A DNA stretch of 32,000 bases from contig JBHLRO010000006.1 in assembly GCA_048882505.1 (NCBI GenBank), positions 90,001 through 122,000 on the forward strand, given 5' to 3'. This DNA comes from Candidatus Thorarchaeota archaeon (GTDB lineage Archaea; Asgardarchaeota; Heimdallarchaeia; Hodarchaeales; Hodarchaeaceae). Shown in pieces: positions 4,501 through 28,065 of the stretch. The notes below the pieces were generated by a model, which saw only the letters and a program-made list of their open reading frames with translations, searched no databases and was not told the DNA's origin. The first letter of the stretch is position 1. The number at the start of each line of letters is the position of its first letter. The position numbers were made by a program, and so were the translations under genes.

Positions 4501-5553
4501 TTGATTACGCGTGATGAATACCTAAAAATCCCCTTGGAAGAACGATTTATAAAATTGGATAAGGTCCAAGAGGAAAGAGTCGAACAAATCTACGAGAAAT
4601 ATATATTTATTGAACTGCATTCACATATTCTCAATGATGAATACTTCATTGTCCCTCGAATAAAGAACTCCCGTATAAATGGTTTTGTCGAAGCAGTTGC
4701 TGGGATACACGAGGAATTCAACACGTCAATGGATAGACTCGGTTATTTTCTTAACCGGGTTCTTCATCATCCTGAATTTATGCCTGCATTTCAGGTAAAC
4801 GATTTTGAAAAGGCCAAAAAAGAAAATAAACAAGCGGTAATGTTTCAACTGGAACCTCAAACTTTCGGCAAAGATTTGGACAACGTTGACATTGCTTTCG
4901 GGCAGGGGATCAGGATGGCACTTCTCACATTTAATACTAGAACATATGCCGGAGACGGTTGTGGGGAAAGAACTAATGCCGGCTTGAGTTATTTCGGCCT
5001 TGACCTCGTAACCCGAATGAACAAGGTTGGCATGCTAATTGATCTCTCTCATGTCGGCATTCAAACGACCTTAGACACTATTGAACATTCTAAGGATCCA
5101 GTTTTGTGTAATCATGTAGGCGCACGCGCCTTATATCAGCAATGTAAGCGACTAAAGACAGATGAAGAATTAGAGGCCTTGGCTGAAAAAGGAGGCCTTG
5201 CGGGTGTTTCAGCAATTCCTAATCAGCTTAGCGGAGAATCCGAACAGGGTATTGAGACTCTATTGGATCATTTAGAATACATGGTTGATCTGATTGGGAT
5301 AAACCATGTGGGTATAGGTTTGGATAACACATTTGGAGACCAAGTTGCAGGACATAAGAAATTCGATAAAACTCTGTTTAAACTTGACTATGTGGGCCAG
5401 GAGCTCAATGCTCCGTTTATGTATGGCATTGAAAGCCCAGAGGAATGGCCCAATATAACGCGGGGACTAGTATTCAGAGAATATTCGGATCAAGAGATAG
5501 AGAAGATAGTTGGAAAAAACGCTGTCAACCTCATGGAAAGAGTAATTGGATAG
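4501..5553 (+). CDS. Membrane dipeptidase (M19), paralogue 5
   Basis: TTG start after GGAG; ELHSH, QLEP, DLSH, CNH, GLDN motifs; closest to paralogue 2. Confidence 0.92.
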   Translation: MITRDEYLKIPLEERFIKLDKVQEERVEQIYEKYIFIELHSHILNDEYFIVPRIKNSRINGFVEAVAGIHEEFNTSMDRLGYFLNRVLHHPEFMPAFQVNDFEKAKKENKQAVMFQLEPQTFGKDLDNVDIAFGQGIRMALLTFNTRTYAGDGCGERTNAGLSYFGLDLVTRMNKVGMLIDLSHVGIQTTLDTIEHSKDPVLCNHVGARALYQQCKRLKTDEELEALAEKGGLAGVSAIPNQLSGESEQGIETLLDHLEYMVDLIGINHVGIGLDNTFGDQVAGHKKFDKTLFKLDYVGQELNAPFMYGIESPEEWPNITRGLVFREYSDQEIEKIVGKNAVNLMERVIG

Positions 5554-5605
5554 CAAATATAGCACGGAAATATCCATACTTGGCTATTCTGAGGAAAAAA
5601 ATACA

Positions 5606-6838
5606 ATGGAACGTGATCTTGTTCTCATTCTGGTTGCGGGCCTTGCTTACAGTACCATGCTTGGGCTCCTAAATCCAACAGTCCCCTTGTCCGCAAGCGC
5701 ATTGGGTGCGTCAACAACTTTATTGGGAATCCTCTTAAGTTCCAGAGCAATCGTTCAAACCGGGTTACGTGTCCCACTGGGGCAAGGTGCTGATAGATAC
5801 GGTTGGAGACGTATTTTTTTGGTGGCATTCATTCTTGGTGTCGCTTCAGGAGGTACATTCTTCTTTGGTATTGTGAAAGCAGACGTTTTTCTGTTTTTTC
5901 CAGCTTTAATGTTATGGGGGATGACGAATGCTGCGTTCAGGACCACTGAACAAGGTTACGTATCAGGTATTGGAGGATCGGGGGTAAATCGGACACAGCT
6001 GATTGGTCGATATCTTGCCATTACTGGAGTCGGTCAACTGGCGGGTCCTCCGCTTGCAGGTTATCTGATAGAGGTTTGGGATTTTGGAGTAGTTTATCTG
6101 ATGTTCACCCTATTGGCCCTTATTGGCCTTTTATCGATGTTTTTTCTTTCTGAGAGAGATTTAATAGCAGATGAGAACTCAGAAGAGCCGGAAAAAGTAA
6201 ATGATGATTTAGAACTCTTCAAGAGCTATTCGCGTGCCCTTCAATTAATCCGATCTAATAGAATCCTTGCAATCGCCACTTTTTGCGGTTTTCTTATGAC
6301 CTTAAGCTTCGGTGTGGGGCTTTCTTTCCATCCCGTCTTTCTACGGGATTTGGGACTTGCATCTTTCGAGATTGGGCTACTTCTGGCCGCTAGAGATATC
6401 AGTTCAATTATCAGCCGCCTATTTGCAGGTAACATCTCATTAAGGTTAGGCAATCTAGTTACGGTTTTTTTAGGGATTTTTTGTGTTGGAATCGGAGTAG
6501 CGATAACTCCGTCGTTAAAAGATCCCTTACTGGCAATAATTCCTTTATGTGCAACAGGATTTGGATTTGGAATCTTTTGGCCAGCTATTGTCTCTCTGAT
6601 AGCTGCAAAAACCGACCATGATAAACGGGGATTGGCCATTGGCGTCTTAGGTACAGGATTTACAACAGGTTTTTCAGTGGGGTCAATAATCTTTGGAATT
6701 GTTGCTGATATTTTTTCAAATCTAGATTATGCATTTCTATATTCCGGAATATGTACGTTAATAGGATTTACACTAGTTGTAGTTTATTTTTATTTCAAAA
6801 AAGATCTATATACCCAAATTGATCTTTATAGTCAATAA
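5606..6838 (+). CDS. MFS transporter
   Basis: About 12 hydrophobic segments in two halves; motif-A-like GQGADRYGWRR; co-oriented with the dipeptidase array. ATG 5606 (GAGGA at 5591-5595) preferred over TTG 5546. Confidence 0.9.
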   Translation: MERDLVLILVAGLAYSTMLGLLNPTVPLSASALGASTTLLGILLSSRAIVQTGLRVPLGQGADRYGWRRIFLVAFILGVASGGTFFFGIVKADVFLFFPALMLWGMTNAAFRTTEQGYVSGIGGSGVNRTQLIGRYLAITGVGQLAGPPLAGYLIEVWDFGVVYLMFTLLALIGLLSMFFLSERDLIADENSEEPEKVNDDLELFKSYSRALQLIRSNRILAIATFCGFLMTLSFGVGLSFHPVFLRDLGLASFEIGLLLAARDISSIISRLFAGNISLRLGNLVTVFLGIFCVGIGVAITPSLKDPLLAIIPLCATGFGFGIFWPAIVSLIAAKTDHDKRGLAIGVLGTGFTTGFSVGSIIFGIVADIFSNLDYAFLYSGICTLIGFTLVVVYFYFKKDLYTQIDLYSQ

Positions 6839-6852
6839 TTTCATTTGATCGT
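6793..6852. repeat. Direct repeat, copy 1 (att-like), overlapping MFS 3' end
   Basis: TTTCAAAAAAGATCTATATACCCAAATTGATCTTTA (6793-6828) is identical to 8827-8862; 54/60 identity over the extended match, offset 2034 bp. Confidence 0.92.
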
Positions 6853-7181
6853 TGCCCTTAAGTAATGTTAAAGAAGCGCTCAGGTATCTTGGCGCGATTA
6901 TACCCGAGGAAAGCTGGTGATAAAGATTGAGTAATCCGTCCAACTTGACTGCAGTACGGCATATTCCTGTCGGAATTAAAGACGAAAGGAGATTAACTGA
7001 ATTAACAACTAGGGCCTAATCGGATCATTTCGATGATTCTTGGCAAGGATTCAGCGTGGTTATTTTCATCCGAAAAACTTTGAAAGGTCGATGGAAACAT
7101 AAATTAGAGCAGAAGATTAAAACTTTAGGAAATGTAATCCAAAAAAACGGTCAGAAGACGGAGGATTCGGAAGAACTCCAC

Positions 7182-8624
7182 ATGGGGCCCAGATATCGAA
7201 TCAAAACCTCGGAAACCTGGCTGATCTACCTTCTTCTGCTCTTACCGCTGTTCCCTTGGCTCCTATTCACTAGGTATTTCCTGGTTATTTCTTCAATTCA
7301 TTCGATGCCAGATAATCATGGATCAACAGAACAAATTATCGTGCGAAAAGCAGAGTATTCGGGACAAGTTAAAAAATCCTACCTAGTTCATCCACCAATC
7401 TATATCGATGGAAACCTGGATTTCTTTTCCCATGTTATGGCAGAAAATTGGCCGGGAAACGGAACACTTGCTTCTCCGTATGTTATTGCGGGACTCAACA
7501 TAACAGGCCCTCCCGATGTGGATTTGATAGGTATAAGGAACACCGATGTACTATTCTACATCAATAATTGCCGGTTAGAAGGTGGTAATGGTGGCATTGA
7601 ACTGAATAACGTCACCAATGCGCATGTTTTAGGCAACATTATTTTGAATAATGTAGGCCCTGGTATTAGGGCCAGTTTTGGGAACACCAATACCATTTCA
7701 GGGAATACAATTATGGAAAATGATGGAGCTGGAATCACTCTAAGATTCGTGGAAAATACCACCATTTCCAGTAACTTTATCGATAATAATGCTGGAAAGG
7801 GAATAAACCTTGATTTCTCTCGATTTGCTGCCATTTCAAACAATATCCTCACCAATAATCAGAATGAGGGCCTTCGTTTAGATATCTCGGTTGGGGGTAT
7901 TATTATAGGTAATACCGTCACGCATAATGGAAACAATGGAATTGACATGCATGATTCGAGTGATAGTACTATTACGGGAAATACCTTTAATCACAACGGG
8001 GGGTGGGGGATTGTTATTGGAACATCGAGCGCTAGTACGATTAACAGTAATAAAGTTATTAATAACGAGGTGGCTGGAGTACTTCTATGGTTTGCGGAGA
8101 ATACCAGGATATCAAGTAACACTATCAGCGATAATGGTTGGAGGGGAATTAATTCAGCATTTTCTATCAATACAACTATTTCATACAATGTTATTACCCG
8201 AAACCGCAATCACGGTATACGGTGTGATGATTCGGCACGAAACTTCATTTCAGGCAACAATATCACTTATAATAGCGGTTACGGCGTCTACCTGATTAGT
8301 ACGGAAAGCACTGTTGTAATGGGAAACTTATTTATAAGTAACAATCCCCGAGGATCTTCCCAAGCTTATGATGCTGGTATGGATAATTCGTTCGTTTACA
8401 ATTACTGGAATGAGTGGACTTCATCTGATGGTAATCTGGATGGGGTAGTAGATTTACCTTATTCTATTAATGGGCCAACACATAATCAAGATGGATTTCC
8501 CCGTACTTCTCCCTCGCCTGATTTTGCCAAACAAGTAATGAATCACATCATCACTGTCTTTGCACTATTGGTGATAATTCTAAGCGCTTTGGGAGTCTCA
8601 CTACGGATACAAAGACGTGCTTGA
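7182..8624 (+). CDS. Right-handed parallel beta-helix (NosD/PbH1, pectin-lyase fold) membrane-anchored surface protein
   Basis: N-terminal hydrophobic signal; HPPIYIDGN...WPGNGTLASPYVI cap; many 'N.I..N...GI.L' repeats of about 22 aa; NYWNEW...DGVVDLPY...QDGFP end; C-terminal TM and basic tail. ATG 7182 preferred; GTG 7056 is the longest ORF. Confidence 0.88.
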   Translation: MGPRYRIKTSETWLIYLLLLLPLFPWLLFTRYFLVISSIHSMPDNHGSTEQIIVRKAEYSGQVKKSYLVHPPIYIDGNLDFFSHVMAENWPGNGTLASPYVIAGLNITGPPDVDLIGIRNTDVLFYINNCRLEGGNGGIELNNVTNAHVLGNIILNNVGPGIRASFGNTNTISGNTIMENDGAGITLRFVENTTISSNFIDNNAGKGINLDFSRFAAISNNILTNNQNEGLRLDISVGGIIIGNTVTHNGNNGIDMHDSSDSTITGNTFNHNGGWGIVIGTSSASTINSNKVINNEVAGVLLWFAENTRISSNTISDNGWRGINSAFSINTTISYNVITRNRNHGIRCDDSARNFISGNNITYNSGYGVYLISTESTVVMGNLFISNNPRGSSQAYDAGMDNSFVYNYWNEWTSSDGNLDGVVDLPYSINGPTHNQDGFPRTSPSPDFAKQVMNHIITVFALLVIILSALGVSLRIQRRA

Positions 8625-8826
8625 AGGGCAGGTTTTTCCATAGGGGAAGGATTAGTCCTTATTCGGGATACTGTTAGTAACATACATCGCCCTCAAACGA
8701 GGTTCGTAACCCAGCGATCTTCAGATAATTCCCTAGATCAGGGCTGCATTGAACGTAATTCATCCATCATTATACGCAACAGGATCTTTTTCACTTTAAA
8801 ATGGCCCATTTGAGAATTTGTTCCTG

Positions 8827-8886
8827 TTTCAAAAAAGATCTATATACCCAAATTGATCTTTAGAGCCAATAAGTTTAGGTGATCGT
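8827..8886. repeat. Direct repeat, copy 2 (att-like), containing the RBS of the DJ-1 gene
   Basis: Matches 6793-6852; AGGTGA at 8877-8882 precedes ATG 8887. Confidence 0.92.
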
Positions 8887-9543
8887 ATGTCTAAATTGTC
8901 TTATTCAAATCCCCCCAGCGAGGGGGCTCCCTGGCGTGTTGGAATATTACTTTTTAATGAAGTCGAAGTTTTGGACTTCTGCGGACCATTTGAGGTCTTT
9001 GCTGCAACTAGGTTTTTAGATCCGAATGGTGAAAGAACCGACAAGATTGTCTTCAAGGTTAAATTGATTTCACAAACTGGTAACATGGTAGAATGTCGCG
9101 GAGGGCTTAAAGTTATGCCTGATTTCAGCTTTACTTCATCACCAGATTTTGATATCGTGGTGGTTCCAGGAGGTTGGGGAACCAGGAAGGAGGTTGATAA
9201 TTCAATTTTGGTGAAATGGTTAAAATCACAGTGGGAGAAGGTTCAATTAATGACATCAGTATGTACAGGAAGCTTTCTTCTGGCAAAAACGGGAATATTA
9301 GACGGCTTCGAAGCTACAACGCATTGGGCGAGTCTTAAAAGGTTACAAAGGGCTTTTCCTACGGTAAAAGTTATTACAAATAAGCGATTCGTTATCACAG
9401 GACATGGCAGAATTGTTTCATCTGCTGGAATTTCATCGGGCATTGATATGGCTCTGTACCTGGTCAGCAAGCTGGTGGGACAGGAGATCGCGTTAAATAC
9501 TGCCAATCATATGGAATATCGTGGGGATTTCGTAGATGTATGA
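8887..9543 (+). CDS. DJ-1/PfpI (ThiJ/InhA-like) family protein
   Basis: EVLDFCGPFEVF, DIVVVPGG, nucleophile elbow SVCTG, ATTHW, SSAGISSGIDMAL. Confidence 0.92.
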   Translation: MSKLSYSNPPSEGAPWRVGILLFNEVEVLDFCGPFEVFAATRFLDPNGERTDKIVFKVKLISQTGNMVECRGGLKVMPDFSFTSSPDFDIVVVPGGWGTRKEVDNSILVKWLKSQWEKVQLMTSVCTGSFLLAKTGILDGFEATTHWASLKRLQRAFPTVKVITNKRFVITGHGRIVSSAGISSGIDMALYLVSKLVGQEIALNTANHMEYRGDFVDV

Positions 9544-9723
9544 CCATCATCCCAATTAGACCATCATCTCGACCGGACGTACACCAAATAATGATTTAGA
9601 GCCACCTTTGAAGGCCATATTTGTTACTTAGCGGCCTAGTCCTATTTAATAGTCCTCTTATTAATCCAAATTGAGATTTTTGGTGATAAGAAAGATGTCC
9701 TCGATCGTGTAGGCATTCTGCCA

Positions 9724-10092
9724 TCAATACAAGATATGGCTGATTTTTTGGATGAGTTGATTGAGCTCTAGGAGGAGATTTTCATCCTGATCGCCCTGAG
9801 CTGCGATCTTATCCCATGTTTCTCGAGTTAATCCATAACCTTGGAGGCGATCGTCCAAAATGAGACTCCACCGATAAACTCCTTCTCGGTACGATCCTGC
9901 TCTACTGAGAATAATATGGTATTCTAAAGCTAGCTGAAGATACACTTTTTGCTCTGTTGGCGTAAGGGAGGATTCTTGGATAGAATCGGGGAAGATATGC
10001 TCCAAAGGAAGTTGCGAACTGATCTTCATGGATGAAATCTGTCCCGTTGTAGATTTCTTTAGTGCTTCTAGAAGTTCCTCAAGTTCTTGCAT
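9724..10092 (-). CDS. Hypothetical protein (possibly the 3' fragment of a decayed gene)
   Basis: 122-aa ORF with protein-like composition; no family recognised; upstream minus-strand frames are also partly open. Confidence 0.45.
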   Translation of the reverse strand: MQELEELLEALKKSTTGQISSMKISSQLPLEHIFPDSIQESSLTPTEQKVYLQLALEYHIILSRAGSYREGVYRWSLILDDRLQGYGLTRETWDKIAAQGDQDENLLLELNQLIQKISHILY

Positions 10093-10263
10093 GCTGAATA
10101 CATCTCATTGGGTTTTCGATAATTTCTAATTCTCCGAATTTAATAGTCCCAACCACCAACCTTATAGCTTGACTTACAAAAAATTGGAAGTCCCTTTTTC
10201 ATCTCAAGTTAAACCTCTTCAATTTCTCAATTAATCCTGTTTGTAATACATGATCAAAATTCT

Positions 10264-13100: not shown

Positions 13101-13286
13101 GTTATGTTCCTATGGATTTCATATATTCCTCAATACATTTACTTCTTTATCACTCAATAATGCTTTGGATTAGTCTCAGTTCAAACATCCTGTGGGACTT
13201 TAGTATCAATCGATCCATGCGCTTGATTTATGTCTCTAAATTTCAACTCTAAGACAATGATTCTTATGTTATCATTATAATTTGTA

Positions 13287-13315
13287 TATTTCAATAACAT
13301 CATATAAAGCTTTCT
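13287..13315 (-). promoter_or_regulatory. Archaeal BRE-TATA-like promoter, copy A
   Basis: Minus strand AGAAAGCTTTATATGATGTTATTGAAATA: purine-rich BRE plus TTTATAT box; 27/29 identical to 13851-13879. Confidence 0.55.
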
Positions 13316-13369
13316 GTTTTGGCTTCCGCTTGAATAGTATTTAGAAAACGTCAGGAAGATAGTATACAG

Positions 13370-13830
13370 CTAGAACGTAGCTGTACGGGCAACATCACCC
13401 TTTTTGGAAGCCGCCCCAGTTCTAATTAAAGACTTTAGAAAAGGGTGGTGTTCTCTTCTAAAAACCTGGACATATAACCGATTTGGGAGAGCCCTCAGAC
13501 CGGTATTACGAATGAAGAACCTAATTTCAATAAAACTACTGGTATCATCCTCGGGACTCCCTCCCCAAACTACCGATGTCTTGAACCCAAGGTAATCGTT
13601 TTTGGGGCCTTGCTTTAATACGGATTCCTCGGGGCGGTACCCTCTTGGTGACTCCACCGCAGCGTTCTTTAGTTAAGCTTAAAGATAGATAGTCTAAGAT
13701 TTTTTGTCCTTCTTGGGTGACGAGGAGAAGGGGATTATCTTCTAACAAACATCCTGGGTCAGTTTGGTGACGACCAAGCCTAGCAGTCAAATTTTGACTC
13801 GCAGGAGTCTCTCTAATACATTAGTTCCAT
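13370..13830 (-). pseudogene. Probable frameshifted gene (ORFs 13545-13790 and 13370-13657)
   Basis: Two overlapping minus-strand ORFs downstream of promoter copy B could be joined by a frameshift near 13670; no family recognised. Confidence 0.3.
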
Positions 13831-13850
13831 TGTTATTTGTATAGTTCGAT

Positions 13851-13879
13851 TATTTTAATAACATCATATAAAGTTTTCT
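13851..13879 (-). promoter_or_regulatory. Archaeal BRE-TATA-like promoter, copy B
   Basis: Minus strand AGAAAACTTTATATGATGTTATTAAAATA; near-identical to copy A, 564 bp away. Confidence 0.55.
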
Positions 13880-14273
13880 ATCCTGAAACAGCACCCTGAT
13901 GCTCTAGTGGCGTAGCTATCCGATATCAAAAGTCCTATTTTAAGACCTAGTAAAACTATTTGTCTTTTCATGCTTTCAAGCCTGCCGAATGGAAGTTTTA
14001 AGATTGCTTTGCAAAGCTGATTAAAAATGATCTAAAAAAACGACCTCAAAATTGGTCATATTAGCTTAGCAATTAAATTTAACCCTAGATCGCTGGAAAA
14101 AGGTTAAGGAACTTTATTCTTTCAGCTAATATACTAATGTTTACTTAAAAATCTGTTAAATGAAGAATGGAAACAAAATGAGCCCAAATCGATTAGCGAA
14201 ATTGGATTTATCTCTTCTAGGGGTGAAAAACCCCGTGATATCGATGTGCGAGTGAGGTGGAATACCGTGACCT

Positions 14274-15398
14274 TTAAGCTGAATACACTGATACAAATGG
14301 GAAAGTTTCGTGAACCATCTGATTTAAGGAATCATATTCTTCCTTTGAAAAGCCCGTTTCTGGTAGTACACCAAATGCTGTTGCAAATCGGCTTGTGAAG
14401 ATATTTAGGGAATTATTCAGTGCTTTTGACGTGTTAGAGGTAACTATTATGCAGGTTATGTTTGTTTGACGGTTTATCAGGAGTACAGAGTTTTCTAAAG
14501 AGAGTTCATGTAGTCCTGAAGAGAGTGCATCAACTACTGCAATCATTCCAGGGTGTAAATCCTCTAGATCGCGATCATTTTGAGAAATCCAACTGTATGA
14601 GACGAGAGGTTTTTTGGTATTAGTGTCGATAATTACCAATTGAGACGTTTTAAATGGTAGAATAAACAGTAATCTAGGGTCAGATATAAACGCAATCATA
14701 ATGAAAAAAGATCCAAGTAAATATGTTATTTCAACAAGTCCGATATCCAGAGGGAGTAACTGTGTTACGATCATTAATTGGGCAACAAGATAGATAAAAG
14801 AGCCAATTAAAAAAATACTGGCTTTATTCTTCAATTCTCCTGTGGAATTCATATAGAGATTTCCGGCATATATTATCACCAAAATCGCCCTAAAACTCCA
14901 AAAGATGATTTGGGTGTAATGAAGATAGGCCGACACAGATTTTGCTGCCGTTCCGGGAAGTGATGCGAATACAACCATCGCAGTGGCAATAATCCCGAAA
15001 ATGAAAAGCTTAATGGGATCATAAGAGGTTCTATGGGCTGAGTCAAAAAAGATGACCAAAAATATGGTAAATCCTGTAACGGTGAAAAACCCAGTAAAAC
15101 CTAAAACATCTGCTAAAGTCATCGAGACCAATTCACCAGTATTGAGAGTTTTCAAGATGGGAATCCCAATATCAGTCATCAGGAAATTTATGGAGAGATT
15201 ATAAGGATCTAAGGCGAGAACCAATAGTTGTAATCCCACTAAAAAGAACCATGCAAATACACCAAGATAATCTAAGGTAAACCAGAGGAATTGGCGGTAT
15301 CGGGTATTTAGCCATCTTCTAAAACTAACAACAAGTAGTATCGCAATTATAAGTGCGTGAAACAAGGTTATCATGGAAATTAAGAACAAATCTGCCAT
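14274..15398 (-). CDS. 7-TM membrane protein with C-terminal cytoplasmic longin/roadblock-like domain
   Basis: Seven hydrophobic helices in residues ~1-245 ending ..DPRLLFILPFK; a soluble alpha/beta tail of about 125 aa (QLVIID..KPLVSYSW..; SVLLINRQTNITCIIVTS..LNNSLNIFTSRF) with longin-like topology. Confidence 0.7.
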   Translation of the reverse strand: MADLFLISMITLFHALIIAILLVVSFRRWLNTRYRQFLWFTLDYLGVFAWFFLVGLQLLVLALDPYNLSINFLMTDIGIPILKTLNTGELVSMTLADVLGFTGFFTVTGFTIFLVIFFDSAHRTSYDPIKLFIFGIIATAMVVFASLPGTAAKSVSAYLHYTQIIFWSFRAILVIIYAGNLYMNSTGELKNKASIFLIGSFIYLVAQLMIVTQLLPLDIGLVEITYLLGSFFIMIAFISDPRLLFILPFKTSQLVIIDTNTKKPLVSYSWISQNDRDLEDLHPGMIAVVDALSSGLHELSLENSVLLINRQTNITCIIVTSNTSKALNNSLNIFTSRFATAFGVLPETGFSKEEYDSLNQMVHETFPFVSVYSA

Positions 15399-15477
15399 AA
15401 TAATCGAATTCCGACCTAAAGAGGGATAGGGCTAGTTTCCTTTGAATTCACTCAATTAAACCGTAAAAACCTTTTAT

Positions 15478-16587
15478 TTATTGCTGCGAGCCTTGAAGGC
15501 TTTCCAAAATGTGCTCTTGAATCATCATGCAGCTGTTTCCATCAAGGGATTCAACATCCTTTAAAGCAGTAGTAGCTGTTTGCAAGGCGATCAGGAATTC
15601 TGCTCTTTTTTTCTCAAATATCTGATGAAGGTCTTGGTCATAAACCAATAAGATTGCTATGGGGATTTTCATCAGATTTTTTATTATGCGAGGATCGATT
15701 GATGATTTATCAACTAACTTTGTCCAATAAACTTCAAAGATCCAATCCTTAAGCTTTTCTTCCTTTCCCAGGATTGGAAATGGACCAAAAAGAGTATCTA
15801 ACTTATCAGGCTGGTACATTCGTGCGCTATACATTAGACTTGAGAGGATTTCGGAATCATCAAGCATGGTGGTCAGGAGCTCGTTCTTCTGTTCGATTCT
15901 AAATCCACGATTTTCATCAAATAAGCCAATTGCTATACCTATTGCAAATCGATCTCTCATTATGCGACTTTTACCTCTCAGGTTGGCTTGTTGTCTCTTT
16001 CTATATAAAACGGGAAGGATGAGAATTAGGATCAGTAGAAAGATAAGAGAAAAAGCGGCGGAAATCCGAAGCAATGGAGGAATAATATGACTAAGTTCAA
16101 AACGAACGATATCCTCACTGATAAGACCCACAGAACAAGTTGAGGTTATACGAATATAGATCAAACCATTGATAATAAAGGGTAAATCCCACGTAAAAGA
16201 GGTTTTATCCTGGACTGTTGCAATAAAATGCCAATCATTACTGAAACGCTGCAAATCAGGAGATGATGAAGGAAATTCCGGCAGGTTGCCGGACCATAGA
16301 TAATGCAAGGTATACGTGATTACATGACCAGCTGAATCGGAGGCTGCAATCCATTCGATGTTTAAACTTTCCAGAAAATAAACGATGGTAGAATTCTCAA
16401 TCGGTGAAATGATTGTTGGGGGAGCTAGAGTGTGATTCGCGGGTATTTGCTTTGAAGAAAAGGGAGAGATTAAATGGGGCATGAAATTTGATTCTTGAGT
16501 GGTTAATGAAGTATTGATACCAGGGCGGATAATTAGCAGAAAGATAACTGAAATTCCGAGACTCCATTGATTTCTACGCATAATCAT
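15478..16587 (-). CDS. Single-pass receptor-like protein: signal peptide, Fn3/Ig-like ectodomain, TM, cytoplasmic alpha/beta domain
   Basis: N-terminal signal; APPTIISP..LNIEW..SDSAGHVITYTLHY..W..IA..SFTWDL..IYIRI pattern; TM LLRISAAFSLIFLLILILILPVLY; cytoplasmic domain paralogous to the next gene. Confidence 0.72.
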   Translation of the reverse strand: MIMRRNQWSLGISVIFLLIIRPGINTSLTTQESNFMPHLISPFSSKQIPANHTLAPPTIISPIENSTIVYFLESLNIEWIAASDSAGHVITYTLHYLWSGNLPEFPSSSPDLQRFSNDWHFIATVQDKTSFTWDLPFIINGLIYIRITSTCSVGLISEDIVRFELSHIIPPLLRISAAFSLIFLLILILILPVLYRKRQQANLRGKSRIMRDRFAIGIAIGLFDENRGFRIEQKNELLTTMLDDSEILSSLMYSARMYQPDKLDTLFGPFPILGKEEKLKDWIFEVYWTKLVDKSSIDPRIIKNLMKIPIAILLVYDQDLHQIFEKKRAEFLIALQTATTALKDVESLDGNSCMMIQEHILESLQGSQQ

Positions 16588-16607
16588 CTCTCGGTGCCAC
16601 TGGTAGG

Positions 16608-17312
16608 CTAGAGTAATGATAATAATAGTATCTCATTTTGTAAGGTTTCAATGTTACCTGCAAGCTTGTTGAAATTTTCAAATCGGATTTTAAGTTTCTC
16701 AAGGTAACTGGTAAAGACTTCTTTTCGGTCAATAATACGGGATTCAACCTCTTTAGGATAAGTTATCAAAAGGATTGCTAAAGGGGACGTGTTTTTGTGA
16801 TTTTCCCGTGTATGGAACTTAAAACCAAAAGAAAAATAGTTGATTGCAGGCAAATCATTTTGAAGAATGTCACCTGTTCGTATCATTAGTTGACTATCTA
16901 CTGGAAAAGGGCCATACAATTGATCAAGTTTCCCTTGCATATACAGAACAGCACTATACTCCAAAAGACTCTTGATGTAATGATCAGGTAAAGAAAATCG
17001 ATCACTTTTTGCAAAGAGCTTCATTGAATCATCGATTAAGACTCCAAATGCAATTCCAAATTCTAACATCCTTTTACGAACTTTAGATGGAACCGTACTT
17101 ATTGTTGGCTTCTCAGGTTTCAAATTCAGTTGGTATAAGATTATTGGGGTAGATATAACAAGAATGATCAGAATTACGGCCGAAATCAAAGTTAATTGTT
17201 CCTCATCAAACAAACTAATTCCATAAAATGTTGCCATGATTAATGTGGCAATTAATATGGAGGAGAAAGCAATAATTCCTATGATCACTACATGTAGAGG
17301 TGGCTTTTCCAT
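16608..17312 (-). CDS. Two-TM membrane protein with the same cytoplasmic alpha/beta domain
   Basis: Two N-terminal TMs. Shares GIAxG, YSAxxY..KLDxLxGPFP and AILL motifs with 15478-16587. ATG 17312 follows GGAG (TTG 17324 is the longest ORF). Confidence 0.72.
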   Translation of the reverse strand: MEKPPLHVVIIGIIAFSSILIATLIMATFYGISLFDEEQLTLISAVILIILVISTPIILYQLNLKPEKPTISTVPSKVRKRMLEFGIAFGVLIDDSMKLFAKSDRFSLPDHYIKSLLEYSAVLYMQGKLDQLYGPFPVDSQLMIRTGDILQNDLPAINYFSFGFKFHTRENHKNTSPLAILLITYPKEVESRIIDRKEVFTSYLEKLKIRFENFNKLAGNIETLQNEILLLSLL

Positions 17313-17439
17313 TACAATCTCCAAAACTAGACGAATTATCCAGTAGAAATAGGCTGACCAGATCTAAGGAACCAAATATAATTAGATCTCTATTTTTCGT
17401 AATAATTATATCCGCTATGAATATATAACTCCTGATAGT

Positions 17440-18576
17440 TTGACTTCAATAGTCATGGACTCCCTCCCGATCGACCTCCAAGATACGGTTCGCTTTGAAC
17501 CTTTGATCCATGACCTCTACGAAGGTAAAATTAACGAACAACACGCTCGTATACTGGCTGTTCTATTTAAACTTGGAGGGTATACTACTCTGAATACCCT
17601 TCCCGGCCTCTTGAAAATGGGCCAACCTACTATTAGTATTCGAGTCGATGAACTAGTAAATATGGGGCTAGTTAGGAAAAATACTGAATTAATGCCGATG
17701 TCAATAGTACTTTTGATTTCACCAGCCACTCTTCATCAGAAAACTCAAGAACGGATTAAGAAGGTTCGATATGCTTCAGAGTTTTTAATAAAAGTTTCCG
17801 ACGTTCCAGATAAGGTCTCCATTAAAGAATTGATAGAACGTGCATTAAATATTCTGTTCCCCAAGGAAAAGAAAACCCCCCAGATCCTTAGTTCCTCGTA
17901 TGTATATCCAGATAAACTTGTTGAATATAACGAATCCCCAGATGAGGTTTCTGATTATATTCATGTCCTTACCCAAAAGGGCAAAAGGCCGCTCCTACGT
18001 TACTCTAGGCCTGCTTTACCCCTGGCTTTGTGTGCTAGAAGCAGGCTTAGCTACCATGAGGCTAAATACGAATATTACACTTCTTTGATAGAAGAATTAA
18101 CGAACTACGTTTCAGAAGAACACGTGTCGATTATTCCCCACCAACTATTGAGATTTCCGTCAGAGATTAGAAGCAGAATTGATACGTGCTTGAAGCACTA
18201 TCAAGAGATCCGAATAATCGACAACAATATCTTCAAATCAAGAGACGGAGAGATGGGCATAGTAGATCTAGTTGCTAACTCAGATAGTTTTAGGAAGGAT
18301 TCCCCTTCGGGAAATAACCATGTGGTTAAGGTTATTTCGCAAGAAAAGCACAAAGGAGGATCGAATTGGGAAAAGGGATTCATTTTTCGGTATGTCCAAT
18401 TAGCTGATGCAATCAATCGTGATTATGTCACACGTGACTTCTTGATTTTTGGACAACACGGTTGTCTGGTAATACCCTCCCGAGAGAACATTGTGGCGTA
18501 TTACAACATTACGCCATCGTTTACTGATAACATATCAGAGATATTTGAAAAATATTGGAGCGCTGCAAATGCTTAG
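17440..18576 (+). CDS. TrmB-like winged-helix transcriptional regulator
   Basis: ARILAVLFKLGGYTTLNTLPGLLKMGQPTISIRVDELVNMGLVRK is a TrmB/wHTH pattern; long C-terminal effector-like region. Alternative start ATG 17455. Confidence 0.68.
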   Translation: MTSIVMDSLPIDLQDTVRFEPLIHDLYEGKINEQHARILAVLFKLGGYTTLNTLPGLLKMGQPTISIRVDELVNMGLVRKNTELMPMSIVLLISPATLHQKTQERIKKVRYASEFLIKVSDVPDKVSIKELIERALNILFPKEKKTPQILSSSYVYPDKLVEYNESPDEVSDYIHVLTQKGKRPLLRYSRPALPLALCARSRLSYHEAKYEYYTSLIEELTNYVSEEHVSIIPHQLLRFPSEIRSRIDTCLKHYQEIRIIDNNIFKSRDGEMGIVDLVANSDSFRKDSPSGNNHVVKVISQEKHKGGSNWEKGFIFRYVQLADAINRDYVTRDFLIFGQHGCLVIPSRENIVAYYNITPSFTDNISEIFEKYWSAANA

Positions 18577-19156
18577 AGACTTTTTACGAATTATAAAAGG
18601 ATTTGTACTCTTTATAGGGCCTACTCAAGCAGGCAAGACATCTATTCTCAGACGATTGGTCACGGGTATCTTCGAAGATCCTGAACCAACGCTTGGATTT
18701 CGGGAGGAAAATATCGCTAAAGTTAGAGTTATAGAGATTGGAGGTCAAACAGAATTCAAGAAACATTGGGCGACAGCCATTGAACAAAAACCAGTTTGGA
18801 TATTCTACGTAGTAGATATTACAAGACAAGATGAACTTGAGGAATACGAGGAATTTGTCACGAAACTTGAACGAGCCAACCCTGGAATTCGTAAAAAGAT
18901 CACTCTGGTATTAAATAAGGTTGATAAACTAGAAGGGGTTCAAAGAACCGTACAAACATCCAATTCAATCATATGCAGTGCAAAAACAGGTGAAGGCATG
19001 ATAGATTTGCTGGAGGAAGTAGCGAGCAATAAGGATGCAATCACATCAGATACAAGCGATCTTGGTACTGATGCTAACGAAGGAGATTCTTCAATTGATC
19101 AAAAAGGGGAAATTGATACTGAGGCGCTAATTGATGAGTATAAAGATAAGTTCTAA
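18569..19156 (+). CDS. Arf/Sar1-like small GTPase (Ras superfamily)
   Basis: G1 GPTQAGKT, G2 PTLGF, G3 variant EIGGQ, G4 NKVD, G5 CSAK; N-terminal amphipathic MLRDFLRIIKG; acidic tail. ATG 18569 overlaps the upstream stop (ATGCTTAG). Confidence 0.88.
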   Translation: MLRDFLRIIKGFVLFIGPTQAGKTSILRRLVTGIFEDPEPTLGFREENIAKVRVIEIGGQTEFKKHWATAIEQKPVWIFYVVDITRQDELEEYEEFVTKLERANPGIRKKITLVLNKVDKLEGVQRTVQTSNSIICSAKTGEGMIDLLEEVASNKDAITSDTSDLGTDANEGDSSIDQKGEIDTEALIDEYKDKF

Positions 19157-19183
19157 TCCCTGGATTGACGAACTTTTCCCGAG

Positions 19184-19597
19184 CTAGGATTTGTACAAGT
19201 ATGCTTGCTTTAACCAATCCAGTAATTGGTCGTCGATTTCCTCTTGATTTTCAATTATAGCGACATGTACGATCGTCCCATTCATCTTTGCCGTTTTTTG
19301 GATTCTCGGATGCGTAATTCGTTCTGCCAATTTGAACTCGACCTTTATTTTATCCTTCTGAATGAAAATCATACCGAATTGGGCACGCGCGCTCATATTG
19401 ATTGCAAAGGAAATAGCATCGAACCGAACGGGAAGTTCTGCCAGCAGCAGGGCCTTTAAACTCTGATATAGCCGTTTGACTTTCTCGGATTTTCCTTTGA
19501 GGTGATCCAGCGGTTTTATCTTAGTACAGGTGTGGGTTTGGTTTTTCCTAGCAAACTGCCTTTCGCATTTATTACATGTCCAAAGGTTTATCGCCAA
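19184..19597 (-). CDS. DUF5655-like protein with N-terminal Zn finger
   Basis: WTCNKCERQF..NQTHTC followed by a DUF5655-type alpha/beta body ending EIDDQLLDWLKQAY. Confidence 0.75.
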   Translation of the reverse strand: MAINLWTCNKCERQFARKNQTHTCTKIKPLDHLKGKSEKVKRLYQSLKALLLAELPVRFDAISFAINMSARAQFGMIFIQKDKIKVEFKLAERITHPRIQKTAKMNGTIVHVAIIENQEEIDDQLLDWLKQAYLYKS

Positions 19598-19647
19598 TTC
19601 CAGTCATCTCGTTATACTTACTACAGATCTACCAAGATATTGTTTCC

Positions 19648-19874
19648 TCAGAACAATCTGTAGTGATCTTTGAATTTATAATGGATCTTATGTAATCGAA
19701 AACCTTCGTAGTCAAACATTATTTCGCCATTCCTGTGAACCATCAGTACGTTCACAGAAACCTCCTTGGCTTTTGTAATCAAATTCGAGATACTCCTAGC
19801 TTTATTATCCCGTATTAGGCGAATGGCTTTTCTATCAAGCTTCCTTTGAAATTAACCAAGGTTTTTTCTTTCAT
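19648..19874 (-). pseudogene. Possible small gene broken by a 1-nt deletion
   Basis: ATG 19874 gives MKEKTLVN; adding one T at AATTT shifts into a frame open for about 65 codons (FQRKLDRKAIRLIRDN...HYRLF*). Confidence 0.25.
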
Positions 19875-20918: not shown

Positions 20919-21363
20919 ATTGTTGCTCCAGATAACTGAATATTTCAGTATGCTGTTTGTTACTTCGCAAGTAGGGCGGCAATTCTCAACCAGGCTGTGA
21001 GGAGCATCACCAGGCTCATTGCTAGATAGATGTGCATTTGGATACTTTGGCCTGATTGGCCACTTAAGGATCTACTTGACCTTGGTAGGTAGATCTTAAA
21101 ATAACAAAAACTTTTTTTTGCCCTTTTTCTCAAATCTCTTTTAGAATTCCAAGGATATGCACTAGTCTCGTGCCTAGTCTGGTTAGGTTCTAATATCAAT
21201 TCGATGATTTTAATCTTCTCATTCCTAACATTCACCTGAACTTAGCGGACTATCTCCCCCATCTCAATATTGGAGAATATCTAAGGTGACGTTTAAGAAA
21301 AGTTTTGTCCTTAAAAGGGTACTTCGCAGATGAGGTATTGAATACACGAAATAGGCCTTTTGG

Positions 21364-21612
21364 GTGATAGAAAAACGTCAAGCGACTGATGTTCATTGGA
21401 TAAAAGGAGAGTCAAAGGATTTGGTAAGCAGCCTGGAACTGGAACTTCCTTTTTTTTGCTACATTGATGAAAAAAACCATCCTGGATCAGAAACAATGTA
21501 CAAGTGTCAAAAATGTGGAATATACATGTGTGGTGCCTGTTATAAAGCTCTTACTATAGTGGTGGGTTCCATTACATGCCTTCAATGCAACAGTAATCTC
21601 ACCCTGGTATAA
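21364..21612 (+). CDS. Small Cys/His-rich Zn-finger protein
   Basis: C..H, CQKC, MCGAC and CLQC ligand pairs (B-box/RING-like spacing); start codon uncertain. Confidence 0.55.
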   Translation: MIEKRQATDVHWIKGESKDLVSSLELELPFFCYIDEKNHPGSETMYKCQKCGIYMCGACYKALTIVVGSITCLQCNSNLTLV

Positions 21613-21675
21613 ATTTTGTTCAATTACGAACAACAACAGCCCAGAAACTTGCCGTAATTTTATAGGGAAGAGTTT

Positions 21676-21984
21676 ATGGGCTATTTAGATCAGGAGATGA
21701 GAATAAGAAACCATATTTTGGATTGCAGAGAAATGAAAGACCAACTTCGAAAATTTAAGGAAAAAACAGCGCAAATTTCGGAGGAAAAAGCAAAAACAAT
21801 CATGCTAAAGGGAACGGGTTTGACATTTGAGGAACTAGAGGAACGGGATGACCTGTTAACATATTCACGCCTCCAAAGGGAGTTTTCAAAAAAAAATATC
21901 CTTCGAATGATGAACAGTTGCAAATGTAACAACGAGGAGAGCATAAAACATACAGGGTCTTTGTCAGAATATGTCGAATGCTAG
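21676..21984 (+). CDS. Hypothetical helical protein
   Basis: 102-aa ATG ORF after GGAAG; charged helical composition. Confidence 0.55.
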   Translation: MGYLDQEMRIRNHILDCREMKDQLRKFKEKTAQISEEKAKTIMLKGTGLTFEELEERDDLLTYSRLQREFSKKNILRMMNSCKCNNEESIKHTGSLSEYVEC

Positions 21985-22007
21985 TACATCGAGAAATCTT
22001 GCGGCTT

Positions 22008-22766
22008 TTAAGTAAAAAACATTCCTGTTATTACAAAAGAGAGCGTACCGATAATTAGGAGTGAGAGGTCACTATTTGAATTAGAAACCTGGATTATAAA
22101 CTCATTTGTGGTTATCGGTTTAACAGAAAAAACGGGTTCGTCGTTATTATCTAGAAAATAAACGTTTGAAACCGGTGTATCTATGGTATTTTTGCGTTTG
22201 ACCTTTAGAGTATATTTATTGAACGCTGTTTCGAGTAACAAGGCATCAATGTCATGGTCCGTATTTGATGATGAAGAAAGATTGGTTCCCCACTTTCCAG
22301 AAAACGATGCTACCACTTCACCAATTGAATTTCGGATACTGCCCGTACTAGTACCTCCACTCTTGGTTCGGACGTATACATTCCCCATTAACTGGTTATC
22401 ATTATCTCGTAACTCTATCATTGGAATCTCTCTCCCTTTGGCACGTAAAGCGGTAATCAACAGTCGAATCATATTAAAGGGATCAAATTTGAAGGTTAAT
22501 TTGCTGTACAATAATCTCGTCTTATTTGGAGAATAAATTTCAAAGGTCCTTTTGTTTTTGCTTCTGACTAAACTGAAGGATTGATAAAAAACGTCATCAG
22601 TTACTCGAACTTTTTCAGGTTTTAATGCGAGTTTAGGACTAGTGGGGAGAGCTTCTTGGTCAAAGGACGTCCCACATGTTGGACACTTCAATTCTTTTTT
22701 AATATCAAAAATCGCACCGCATACGGAACAGGATTCATACTCAGGTTGGGAAAAATTCAATGTCAA
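22008..22766 (-). CDS. Zn-ribbon plus LURP-one/scramblase/tubby-like beta-barrel protein
   Basis: N-terminal CSVCG...CPTCG; repeated beta-hairpins (FEIYSPN, IELRDNDNQLMG, SIRNSIGEVVA, YFLDNNDEPVF); terminal hydrophobic helix LSLLIIGTLSFVI. Confidence 0.6.
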   Translation of the reverse strand: MTLNFSQPEYESCSVCGAIFDIKKELKCPTCGTSFDQEALPTSPKLALKPEKVRVTDDVFYQSFSLVRSKNKRTFEIYSPNKTRLLYSKLTFKFDPFNMIRLLITALRAKGREIPMIELRDNDNQLMGNVYVRTKSGGTSTGSIRNSIGEVVASFSGKWGTNLSSSSNTDHDIDALLLETAFNKYTLKVKRKNTIDTPVSNVYFLDNNDEPVFSVKPITTNEFIIQVSNSNSDLSLLIIGTLSFVITGMFFT

Positions 22767-22953
22767 ACACTCGTTTAAGTAGAAAGTGAATAACTAAGAG
22801 CTCCAGTAACGTTGGTATTGTGGTTTTTTTCTAATCTCAATTTCCGAAGCAATGGGTATTTCTCCAATATACGGGAAATGGATTTTTATATGTCACGATA
22901 AAGTGTCACAAAGAAATCATTTAATCCATATCTATCTGCTGAGTAACGGGAAA

Positions 22954-26652: not shown

Positions 26653-28065
26653 ATGGAAGCATCTCCCGAAGCAATTATGAGAAAATTTGGTTTAGAGTTT
26701 ATTAAAGATAACGCAAAAGATCGAAAGATCGCTATACAGACCCTAGGAGTAACCTTCAAGAATGCAATTCAGACATTAGGCAAATCAAGTGTTATGGCCA
26801 AGGCTAGGGTGGAAGATAGAGAATACATAGTTGATCTTTTTGAAGAACTTCATAACGAAGCGAACCGTACAATTGAAACTCAATTGACCCGCCTCACTGT
26901 TAAAGCGTTTAACTGGATTAAAAACATTTTAGTATCCTCTGAGAAGTTAGCTATTGGTGAGGAACGTTCAAGCGAGGCCCTGGTGGATGAACTTCAAGAA
27001 AAGGTGGGAAACCTAGAACAACAATCGAAAATTCAGTCGGATGAATTATCGCGCATTCGAAACATTCACGAGGCGACTGTGGGTCAGGTAATAGAGAAGG
27101 ACAGCTTAATCCAACGGTTAGAACAGAAACTTACTTCTGTTAAAACGGATTTGCAGCAGCAATTGACCATCGAAAAAACCCGTGGGGAATCACTTTCCAA
27201 GCAGGTAGAAGCTATGGATCAGAAAATTAAAAGACAATCAGTTGAGTTATCTGAGAAGGATTTACAAAACCGCAAATTCCAGGACGAGGTGAATGAACTT
27301 AGCATGCAATTGGTGGTGCACAAAACTGAAATCAATAGACTTCAACAGTCGTTAGAACAGAAAAATAAGACGATTGATCAAATTAACATCTCCACAGATC
27401 GAACAGCCGCAGAAGCTATGGCAGCATGGGCGGATAGTTATCAAAAACAGGAGATCACCTTTCAAAATCAATTGGCCGCCGCCCGCCACGAATATGAGGG
27501 CACGATGCAACAAAAGCTAGAGGAAACAGCCAATCGATTCGAGGCGCAGATTGCCGCCCTGAAAAGACAGGTTCGTCTTGCAGAATCGCAAACCATAGAT
27601 CAAAGTGATGAGTATACAAGTAAAATCTCTGAACTATCTGCTAAACTCCGGCAGATTGAGGAAAGAAACAAAGAGCTGGACAATTCAATCACAGAATTAA
27701 TTGAGAAAAACGGTAGGCTGGAAAAGGACCTAGGGGAACAACGAACTCGCAATGATGAACTTCTAAGGGATATTGAAGCCACTAAGAATGCCGGTCCAGC
27801 CATTTCATTGACTGATATTCAGAAAACAAGCAGTAAATTGAAAAACATGAATGAATATATTGACCAGGTTCTCCAGCTCTCGAATTTTTCAATGATTACG
27901 ATTTTACTCCGCATGAACGGAAAAATGAGCCTCGATCACCTTGCTAAGTCAGTTGGTATGGATCCATTGGTACTGGAAAACCAACTGCAGCCATTACATC
28001 AGCGAAATTTGATTGATATTCAATCAGATGGACAGATCATCGCAAATATTCCCAAAAAGACCTAG
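26653..28065 (+). CDS. Long coiled-coil protein with C-terminal winged helix
   Basis: Helical N-domain of about 100 aa; heptad-rich Q/E/K/L region of about 290 aa; tail ILLRMNGKMSLDHLAKSVGMDPLVLENQLQPLHQRNLIDIQSDGQI is wHTH-like. Confidence 0.8.
   Translation: MEASPEAIMRKFGLEFIKDNAKDRKIAIQTLGVTFKNAIQTLGKSSVMAKARVEDREYIVDLFEELHNEANRTIETQLTRLTVKAFNWIKNILVSSEKLAIGEERSSEALVDELQEKVGNLEQQSKIQSDELSRIRNIHEATVGQVIEKDSLIQRLEQKLTSVKTDLQQQLTIEKTRGESLSKQVEAMDQKIKRQSVELSEKDLQNRKFQDEVNELSMQLVVHKTEINRLQQSLEQKNKTIDQINISTDRTAAEAMAAWADSYQKQEITFQNQLAAARHEYEGTMQQKLEETANRFEAQIAALKRQVRLAESQTIDQSDEYTSKISELSAKLRQIEERNKELDNSITELIEKNGRLEKDLGEQRTRNDELLRDIEATKNAGPAISLTDIQKTSSKLKNMNEYIDQVLQLSNFSMITILLRMNGKMSLDHLAKSVGMDPLVLENQLQPLHQRNLIDIQSDGQIIANIPKKT

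Follow-up and report, generated by a model that had tools for sequence, protein, structure and literature searches.

A beta-helix gene cassette without a recombinase at the 3' end of a transporter gene in a Hodarchaeales archaeon

Introduction

How does a 2034-bp unit that encodes no recombinase come to lie between two neighbouring genes, with a copy of the end of the upstream gene on either side of its cargo? The question is raised by a stretch of 32,000 nucleotides (the window, to which coordinates without a contig label refer) that spans positions 90001-122000 of the 165-kb contig JBHLRO010000006.1 (C6) in assembly GCA_048882505.1, from a Candidatus Thorarchaeota archaeon that GTDB assigns to the Hodarchaeales. 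There the gene for a transporter of the major facilitator superfamily (MFS), which is the target, and a gene of the DJ-1/PfpI family, its native downstream neighbour, are separated by a cassette that carries a gene for a right-handed beta-helix protein. We find that this cassette is an insertion specific to one lineage, that relatives retain the empty site, and that units of the same architecture sit behind other genes of the same genome. Our preferred reading, which we consider about equally likely to be right or wrong, is that a related Heimdall-group archaeon was the source of the unit, and that recombination guided by homology, rather than a site-specific recombinase, added it to the chromosome.

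The source assembly (G000) amounts to 4.3 Mb in 83 contigs, is 94.6% complete, and was compared with 21 genomes of the genus, including G016, G014, G011, G007, G005 and G009. G016, a Candidatus Heimdallarchaeota metagenome-assembled genome (TM2S.58, JBHLSH01), is the nearest of these, a sister species approximately 88% identical in DNA. Contig labels given without a genome belong to G000.

Results

A duplicated gene end and its empty site

The MFS gene (5546-6838, + strand; 430 aa; Pfam MFS_1, E 3e-47), which has orthologues in five relatives, ends within the first of two direct repeats. These lie 2034 bp apart, at 6793-6852 and 8827-8886. They agree at 54 of 60 positions and share an identical block of 36 nt (6793-6828 and 8827-8862); a weaker similarity reaches 10 nt further to the left (86% over the 70 nt of 6783-6852 and 8817-8886), and no other such repeat pair occurs in the region. 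Copy 1 contains the last 11 codons of the MFS gene with a three-codon extension, YSQ-stop, and the MFS open reading frame (ORF) ends in ...FKKDLYTQIDLYSQ-stop. Copy 2, read in the MFS register, gives ...FKKDLYTQIDL-stop and ends one base before the ATG, at 8887, of the DJ-1 gene (8887-9543, + strand; Pfam DJ-1_PfpI, 2e-24). The original prediction, made from the letters and their open reading frames, had already described the repeat pair, its identical core and spacing, and the way in which each copy reads in the MFS frame, and we recovered all of these at the same coordinates.

G016 has the same neighbourhood without the cassette. Its contig C8 aligns to the window in two segments, C8:35848-38198 to 4502-6852 and C8:38140-39411 to 8827-10100, whose overlap of 59 nt is a single copy of the repeat (G016:C8:38140-38198). 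The gene order M19-MFS-DJ-1, with approximately 40 nt between MFS and DJ-1, is also present in G014, G011, G007 and G005, where the orthologues are more distant (MFS about 50% and DJ-1 about 60% identical). A protein search of the 21 genomes found the MFS orthologue in these five only, and always adjoining DJ-1. Since MFS is followed directly by DJ-1 in all five relatives that have the locus, the insertion is specific to the G000 lineage. It had been proposed that removal of one unit would leave a tight MFS-DJ-1 junction, and that an empty site should be sought in relatives; the exact junction is what all five possess, in G016 with the single repeat copy. No other cargo was seen at this site among the relatives with the locus.

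The G016 site also indicates which copy is the resident one. It combines the left flank of copy 1 with a core that differs at 3 of 36 positions and the right flank of copy 2; its MFS protein ends in ...INL-stop, and copy 2 in frame ends in ...IDL-stop. At every flank difference that G016 can polarise, copy 1 is the odd one out, its derived states including the change of the stop codon TAG to TAT and of the ribosome-binding site AGGTGA to ATTTGA. Because its right flank, ribosome-binding site and L-stop ending match G016, copy 2 (+ strand) is the resident tail and spacer, that is, the displaced and now non-coding end of the MFS gene together with the native spacer that holds the DJ-1 ribosome-binding site. 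Copy 1 (+ strand) now provides the functional MFS 3' end and, on this comparison, is either foreign or fast-evolved; it would represent an incoming allele of the MFS tail and spacer. The 'att-like repeats' of the first description would thus be two alleles of one gene end.

The distribution of differences between the two copies is uneven. The six mismatches are confined to the 24 nt that follow the core, a clustering with P = 0.0027; the 36-nt block, which is non-coding in copy 2, has none. The divergence of the flank is 0.25 and that between G000 and G016 at 4-fold sites 0.31, against 0 of 36 in the core (95% upper bound 8%). Clustered mismatches next to an unchanged non-coding core fit badly with a local duplication followed by drift, and the same pattern argues that the incoming DNA already had a diverged copy of the 60-nt segment. 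We looked for an import tract around the insertion and discarded the idea, as identity between G000 and G016 shows neither a dip nor a peak there; the 90% clusters of the MFS and DJ-1 proteins contain no member from another assembly. As a separate observation, the 60-nt repeat at 6793-6852 contains three GATC sites, against 0.32 expected from the GATC density of the genome, and the G016 site contains two.

The sequence of the cassette does not depend on a single assembly. An independent k=31 Logan assembly of run SRR30758835 contains a 2058-nt contig that equals window 6799-8856, which is what a 36-nt exact repeat present twice should yield as the unitig between its copies; the cassette is therefore not one assembler's invention.

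The insert and its cargo

Between the repeats lie 1974 bp of insert-specific DNA (6853-8826, + strand), comprising a 329-nt leader, the beta-helix gene and a 202-nt trailer, with a G+C content that resembles that of the flanks. Apart from short beta-helix repeat motifs it has no match elsewhere in the genome or in the relatives. Its ends show neither terminal inverted repeats nor residual homology to the MFS or DJ-1 genes, and the 60-nt homology stops sharply on both sides with no remnant of a longer duplication. The cargo gene (7182-8624, + strand) encodes a right-handed beta-helix/NosD-like protein of 480 aa (522 aa if read from the GTG at 7056; Pfam Beta_helix 3e-38, NosD 9e-35) with hydropathy peaks at residues ~11-37 and ~448-478, from which an N-terminal signal or anchor and a C-terminal membrane anchor are predicted. 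Its best relative among 5.8 billion proteins is a 44% identical paralogue 27 kb upstream in the same genome; the other matches are Asgard proteins, annotated as Heimdall-, Hod- and Odinarchaeota, of at most 41% identity.

The beta-helix gene is the sole ORF of note, and inspection of the ORFs and Pfam matches of the insert revealed no recombinase, transposase or endonuclease gene. In both respects, a membrane-anchored beta-helix protein as the only cargo and no recombinase beside it, the original prediction agrees with our analysis. A tblastn search of 6781-8900 with the LAGLIDADG protein of the genome returned nothing, leaving no endonuclease remnant, and no Rfam family was found in 6000-10000. 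Two classes of element were considered and rejected: a DNA transposon, as there are no terminal inverted repeats and no transposase and the duplication is 60 nt long and imperfect, and an integrase gene split by insertion in the manner of Sulfolobus spindle-shaped virus (SSV), as no ORF runs across the reconstructed attP junction.

Elsewhere in the window, 13103-19726 and 21001-22852 have no counterpart of at least 80% identity in the otherwise syntenic contig C8 of G016, which has 9.5 kb and 2.7 kb of different DNA in their place; these stretches are thus further variable islands.

The same architecture at other gene ends

Other loci of G000 with this architecture were found through the flanks of the beta-helix paralogues and then by comparison of the whole genome with itself. 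Behind smc (C7:771-4376) lies an array (C7:771-12350; L041) in which the last ~85-105 nt of the gene occur five times, at C7 4275, 5643, 8087, 9551 and 12246, with four recombinase-less cassettes. Cassette A encodes an S-adenosylmethionine (SAM) methyltransferase, B a YdjM-like membrane protein and an ORF without assigned function, C a beta-helix/NosD protein, and D another ORF without assigned function together with an aldo/keto reductase. Copies 1-4 of the smc tail all encode the same 27 residues and stop. Of the changes relative to the functional copy 1, about 23 are synonymous and 5 non-synonymous, whereas random changes would be 23% synonymous, so that the copies have diverged as working gene ends and not as decaying local duplicates. 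G016 has a five-copy smc array of its own, in which two distal cassettes are common to G000 (91% and 85% identical) and the proximal ones differ; other genomes of the genus contain at most one match to the smc-tail repeat, compared with four and five in G000 and G016.

At two more loci, both with insertions specific to G000, G016 again has an empty site with one copy of the repeat. An insertion of 1904 bp lies at the 3' end of an aldehyde dehydrogenase (ALDH) gene (C2:361639/363543, to 363646; L053:2639-4647; overlap in G016, 125 nt), and its sole cargo is a free-standing LAGLIDADG endonuclease of 550 aa with several helix-turn-helix modules (C2:361747-363525), which has no paralogue in the genome. 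The relic peptide downstream matches the G016 protein better than the functional end does, and the functional ALDH end is therefore the foreign one. The other insertion, of 1896 bp, lies at the 3' end of a Hel308-like helicase gene (C2:117968/119864, to 119923; L054:2469-4424; overlap in G016, 54 nt), with a 60-nt repeat that is 90% identical and a PMT_2-like membrane protein as cargo. Further candidate loci in G000 carry genes for a TPR protein, a Na+/H+ antiporter, an ArsP permease, a cupin and a CPBP protease.

Small recombinase-less cassettes are therefore recurrent in G000, and two of them carry beta-helix genes. Common to the loci is incoming DNA that has a short homologous copy of a resident gene end beside genes that the recipient lacks, and at all of them the repeat copies are 85-91% identical. 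A system for swapping surface proteins as such, which had been suggested for this cassette, is not what these loci reveal, since the cargo elsewhere consists mostly of ordinary enzymes and transporters. Around the beta-helix paralogue on C10 the flanks show similarity, but a repeat could not be confirmed there, and this locus was dropped.

Three observations of a different kind were made in the course of these comparisons. A minus-strand gene on C31 has its 5' end (MKQRDLKELFEKGK...) duplicated as a 50-nt repeat (22799-22848 and 27616-27665; 98% identical, 4.8 kb apart), with cargo that includes a PIN-domain gene; this repeat may be a 5'-end counterpart of the gene-end cassettes, the G016 region being too rearranged to call an empty site. 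The same contig contains, at C31:23624-23662 (L026:4125-4163), a motif of about 40 nt with copies of 85-100% identity on numerous contigs in many of the genomes of the genus; it could be regulatory, or a dispersed repeat of small size. Lastly, contig C71 (4186 nt), which encodes DMT-type transporter, alpha/beta hydrolase-like and flavodoxin-like proteins, repeats its first 24 nt at its end and may be a 4162-bp circle; no att-like segment in common with the chromosome was found on it.

The core as a candidate recombinase site

The identical block contains an imperfect palindrome of 11-6-11 geometry at 6800-6827 and again at 8834-8861 (without strand), with complementarity at 9 of 11 arm positions, precisely as first described. 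A site as good occurs in 0.17% of the 36-nt windows of G000, or about 1.2% when spacers of 4-10 nt are admitted. The 28-nt core is present at two places only in the 4.3-Mb assembly, even with three mismatches allowed (pattern search and blastn-short); a search of 185,579 GTDB species genomes (one per species) returned only the empty site of G016, and the core was not found in JGI metagenome contigs. Other cargo genes flanked by the core, for which the original prediction had advised a search, were thus not found in these collections. A relaxed arm pattern is not enriched in the genome, with 40 matches against 29 for the reversed control. At the G016 empty site the palindrome is reduced to 7 of 11 positions, and the second arm is lost in G014, G011, G007 and G005.

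Unlike those of dif sites, the arms have no inner TAA/TTA, and it is the 3' end of the MFS gene, not dif, that serves as target. Palindrome scans did not identify the dif site of the genus, returning 17 candidates with inner TAA/TTA and 4 intergenic ones at 10/11; the best-looking, C15:77401, is not conserved in any of the 21 relatives and was abandoned. No motif is common to the repeats of ten loci, among which the 9/11 palindrome belongs to the MFS repeat only, the others reaching 7-8/11, which is chance level. With several loci available, an identical run of 36 nt within coding sequence at one of them is not surprising. A role of the core as an RNA hairpin or terminator was also rejected, its 7-bp stem (-5.5 kcal/mol) being unremarkable in the 78-nt context. 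The Xer/dif reading of the core is accordingly weak. Of the mobile cassette that was originally proposed, the lineage-specific insertion with a replacement gene end and no recombinase of its own stands; the view of the 28-bp core as a site that a recombinase would use throughout a cassette system is not supported, given repeats at the other loci that have neither a common motif nor a comparable palindrome.

The only tyrosine recombinase in the assembly is XerA (C5:210883-212124; L020:850-2091), identified by NCBIfam XerA_Arch at 255 bits (cut-off 220) and with Pyrococcus abyssi XerA (4A8E) as its best solved relative; no serine recombinase was found in the assembly, the insert contains no integrase, and the genome has none but XerA. 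Weak additional PF00589 matches on C4 and C27 proved to be a protein without Pfam family and an FtsX-like permease, and the 23 kb that separate partial tRNA copies on C2 contain housekeeping genes; both leads were set aside. The XerA proteins of G000 and G016 (G016:C16; L067:794-2050) have an insertion of 86 aa between the core-binding and catalytic domains as well as an N-terminal extension, both of which are missing from the XerA of G009 (293 aa); XerA open frames elsewhere in the genus are of ~290-335 aa, against 428 in G000 and G016. These two genomes have no integrase besides XerA, and other genomes of the genus have 1-7 extra Phage_integrase genes.

Discussion

The insertion at the MFS locus would be explained by our preferred reading, homology-guided addition of DNA from a related archaeon, as follows. 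On the incoming DNA, a separate version of the final 36 nt of the MFS gene and of the 24-nt spacer would have preceded the beta-helix gene, and this donor segment would have paired with the resident MFS tail, with a crossover within the identical 36 nt. Either of two routes could lead to the structure observed. A fragment that had become circular could have integrated by a single crossover, as in Campbell-type integration; alternatively, a break could have led to one-ended strand invasion, with end joining as the final step. In the product, copy 1 would finish the MFS protein with three extra residues and copy 2 would be pushed 2 kb downstream, where it would still serve as the DJ-1 leader; a reverse crossover between the copies could delete the cassette and restore the ancestral junction of the G016 type. 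Selection would retain only those events in which a gene end lay within the homology and the target gene stayed intact. We infer a route independent of any dedicated enzyme, as well as a related donor, and with regard to the former the sites at all of the loci are unrelated and XerA is alone in the genome, so that one sequence-specific recombinase cannot serve them all.

Several considerations weigh against this reading. The donor was not found, the cargo having at most 44% protein identity to anything among 5.8 billion proteins, and the foreign origin thus rests on the pattern of the flanks. A donor as divergent as the flank would be predicted to show 3-4 differences in the core, and zero has a probability of only ~0.02-0.03 unless identity was a condition of the crossover. 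The donor homology extends through the spacer to end immediately before the DJ-1 ATG, which means that the cassette would already have sat at the same junction in another lineage; such prior residence would imply a property of a mobile unit, and would push back the first origin of the duplication without explaining it. The core palindrome is unusual (0.17-1.2% of windows). Moreover, we know of no demonstration in these organisms of homologous recombination on 36-60 nt.

The rarity of a 9/11 palindrome around a 6-nt spacer inside the identical block (0.17% of 36-nt windows) also speaks for a non-autonomous element whose 28-bp 11-6-11 core is the site at which the host tyrosine recombinase XerA acts in trans, as in elements that exploit Xer. 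XerA is the sole site-specific recombinase detectable in the assembly, and its 86-aa insertion is present in G000 and G016, which both have smc arrays, and absent from G009. We nevertheless hold this to be rather improbable: the core is absent from everything else that was searched and its arm pattern is not enriched, the site is 7/11 in G016 and its second arm is not conserved in the other relatives, the inner TAA/TTA is lacking at a target that is a gene end and not dif, and the identity of the repeats reaches well past 28 bp. The unrelated repeats without palindromes at the smc, ALDH, helicase and other loci would in addition be too much for one sequence-specific enzyme. A stripped remnant of a conventional integrative element, like a cis-mobilizable element (CIME), or a unit mobilised by the integrase of an element missing from the assembly, is unlikely. 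It would account for the classical signature of a regenerated 3' end, direct repeats as attL and attR, and an empty site in relatives; other genomes in the genus have 1-7 extra Phage_integrase genes, and an assembly that is ~95% complete could miss an element. Set against this are the lack of any integrase fragment and of an ORF across the reconstructed attP junction, the mere 531 nt of the insert that are non-coding, and the many cassettes of two genomes that have XerA alone, all of which would need to have lost an integrase.

That a homing-type endonuclease broke the MFS tail, and that repair from a donor allele brought in the replacement end and the cargo, the endonuclease gene being lost or never linked, seems to us quite improbable, even though such events occur in this genome, as the ALDH locus shows, and mobile ORFs (mORFs) of fungal mitochondria yield the same C-terminal duplication (PMC3630166). 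At the ALDH locus a LAGLIDADG gene is the sole cargo of an otherwise identical structure, with the native tail left as a relic and the site unoccupied in G016. The MFS cassette contains neither an endonuclease gene nor a remnant of one, the LAGLIDADG gene is without a paralogue in the genome, and homing endonucleases are site-specific, so that the ALDH cutter would not cut MFS. Still less probable is a 60-nt target duplication made in place and subsequently decayed, or an assembly artefact that threaded a free 2-kb circle into the contig through the 36-mer. The two copies are indeed closer to each other than either is to G016, and the k=31 graph of the Logan assembly is identical for the integrated form and for a circle plus an empty site. 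The mismatches are clustered, however (P = 0.0027), with an unchanged non-coding core beside a flank that has diverged by 25%; transposons are not known to produce duplications of 60 nt, and the unit lacks terminal inverted repeats; a 165-kb contig built with k >36 needs reads across both junctions; and the architecture is repeated at several other loci. A more far-reaching proposal, which we regard as unlikely, is that Hodarchaeales or Heimdall-group archaea possess a dedicated gene-capture machinery, analogous to integrons, that puts accessory cassettes and replacement gene ends at gene ends. One candidate for the capture enzyme would be the XerA variant with its interdomain insertion of 86 residues, and in that case the sites of this enzyme would include the palindromic core at the MFS locus.

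Asgard genomes are large and flexible, and the mode by which they gain genes bears on models of eukaryote origin. The MFS cassette represents a clean and datable gain: a sister species has kept the empty site, and both gene ends, the resident and the incoming, can be read at the one locus. Considered along with the smc array and the two further insertions that were verified, it suggests that much of the turnover of accessory genes in this clade proceeds via small recombinase-less cassettes anchored on short gene-end homology, with beta-helix surface proteins repeatedly among the cargo. If plain homologous recombination is responsible, the cassettes show how readily these archaea take up the DNA of relatives; if a dedicated enzyme is, they point to a new gene-capture system. 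On the practical side, the foreign functional 3' ends of such genes can mislead phylogenies.

Among known systems, CIMEs and tandem accretion occur at the 3' ends of protein-coding and tRNA genes, for example fda in Streptococcus thermophilus, and CIMEs depend for their recognition and movement on the integrase encoded by a related integrative and conjugative (ICE) or integrative and mobilizable (IME) element at a defined att core. The MFS cassette resembles them in its direct repeats derived from the target 3' end, a proximal copy that regenerates the gene, an insert without integrase, and empty sites in relatives, and the smc array does so in stacking several units behind one gene. It differs in that G000 has no such integrase, that the repeat is a different one at each locus, and that the repeats are diverged alleles and not a conserved core. 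A foreign C-terminus is also a feature of the mORFs of fungal mitochondria, in atp6 of Allomyces macrogynus and in atp6, atp9, cox2 and nad3 of Glomus (PMC3630166). Here too the host gene is interrupted near its end, the insert gives an in-frame foreign C-terminus, and a native relic downstream is closer to the sister species; mORFs encode the endonuclease that drives them, however, whereas the MFS cassette encodes only a surface protein, and the counterpart with a LAGLIDADG gene in G000 is the ALDH locus. Papers on Asgard mobile elements (PMC8813620, PMC11529989) describe integrase-bearing elements, aloposons and viruses, and not recombinase-less gene-end cassettes, and a review of archaeal tyrosine recombinases (PMC8371274) covers integrase-independent homologous recombination between integrated elements without discussing the gene-end cassette pattern.

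Integrative mobile elements that exploit Xer (IMEX) and dif/pdif modules likewise have no recombinase of their own and share the 28-bp 11-6-11 geometry. Their sites resemble the host dif, and they integrate at dif or recur on many modules; the MFS core, in contrast, is unique, lies in a gene tail, and resembles no identified dif, that of the genus not having been identified. Campbell-type integration is the 'pop-in' of archaeal and bacterial genetics, and homology-facilitated illegitimate recombination is a feature of natural transformation. Both are known mainly from laboratory use or transformation experiments, and as a recurrent natural builder of gene-end cassette arrays in Asgard archaea, the role that such recombination may have played here, neither has a description in the literature that we examined. 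They share with the MFS cassette a short homology of the incoming DNA that ends up on either side of the insert, a product that mixes alleles of resident and incoming origin, independence from a dedicated recombinase, and a reverse crossover that removes the insert.

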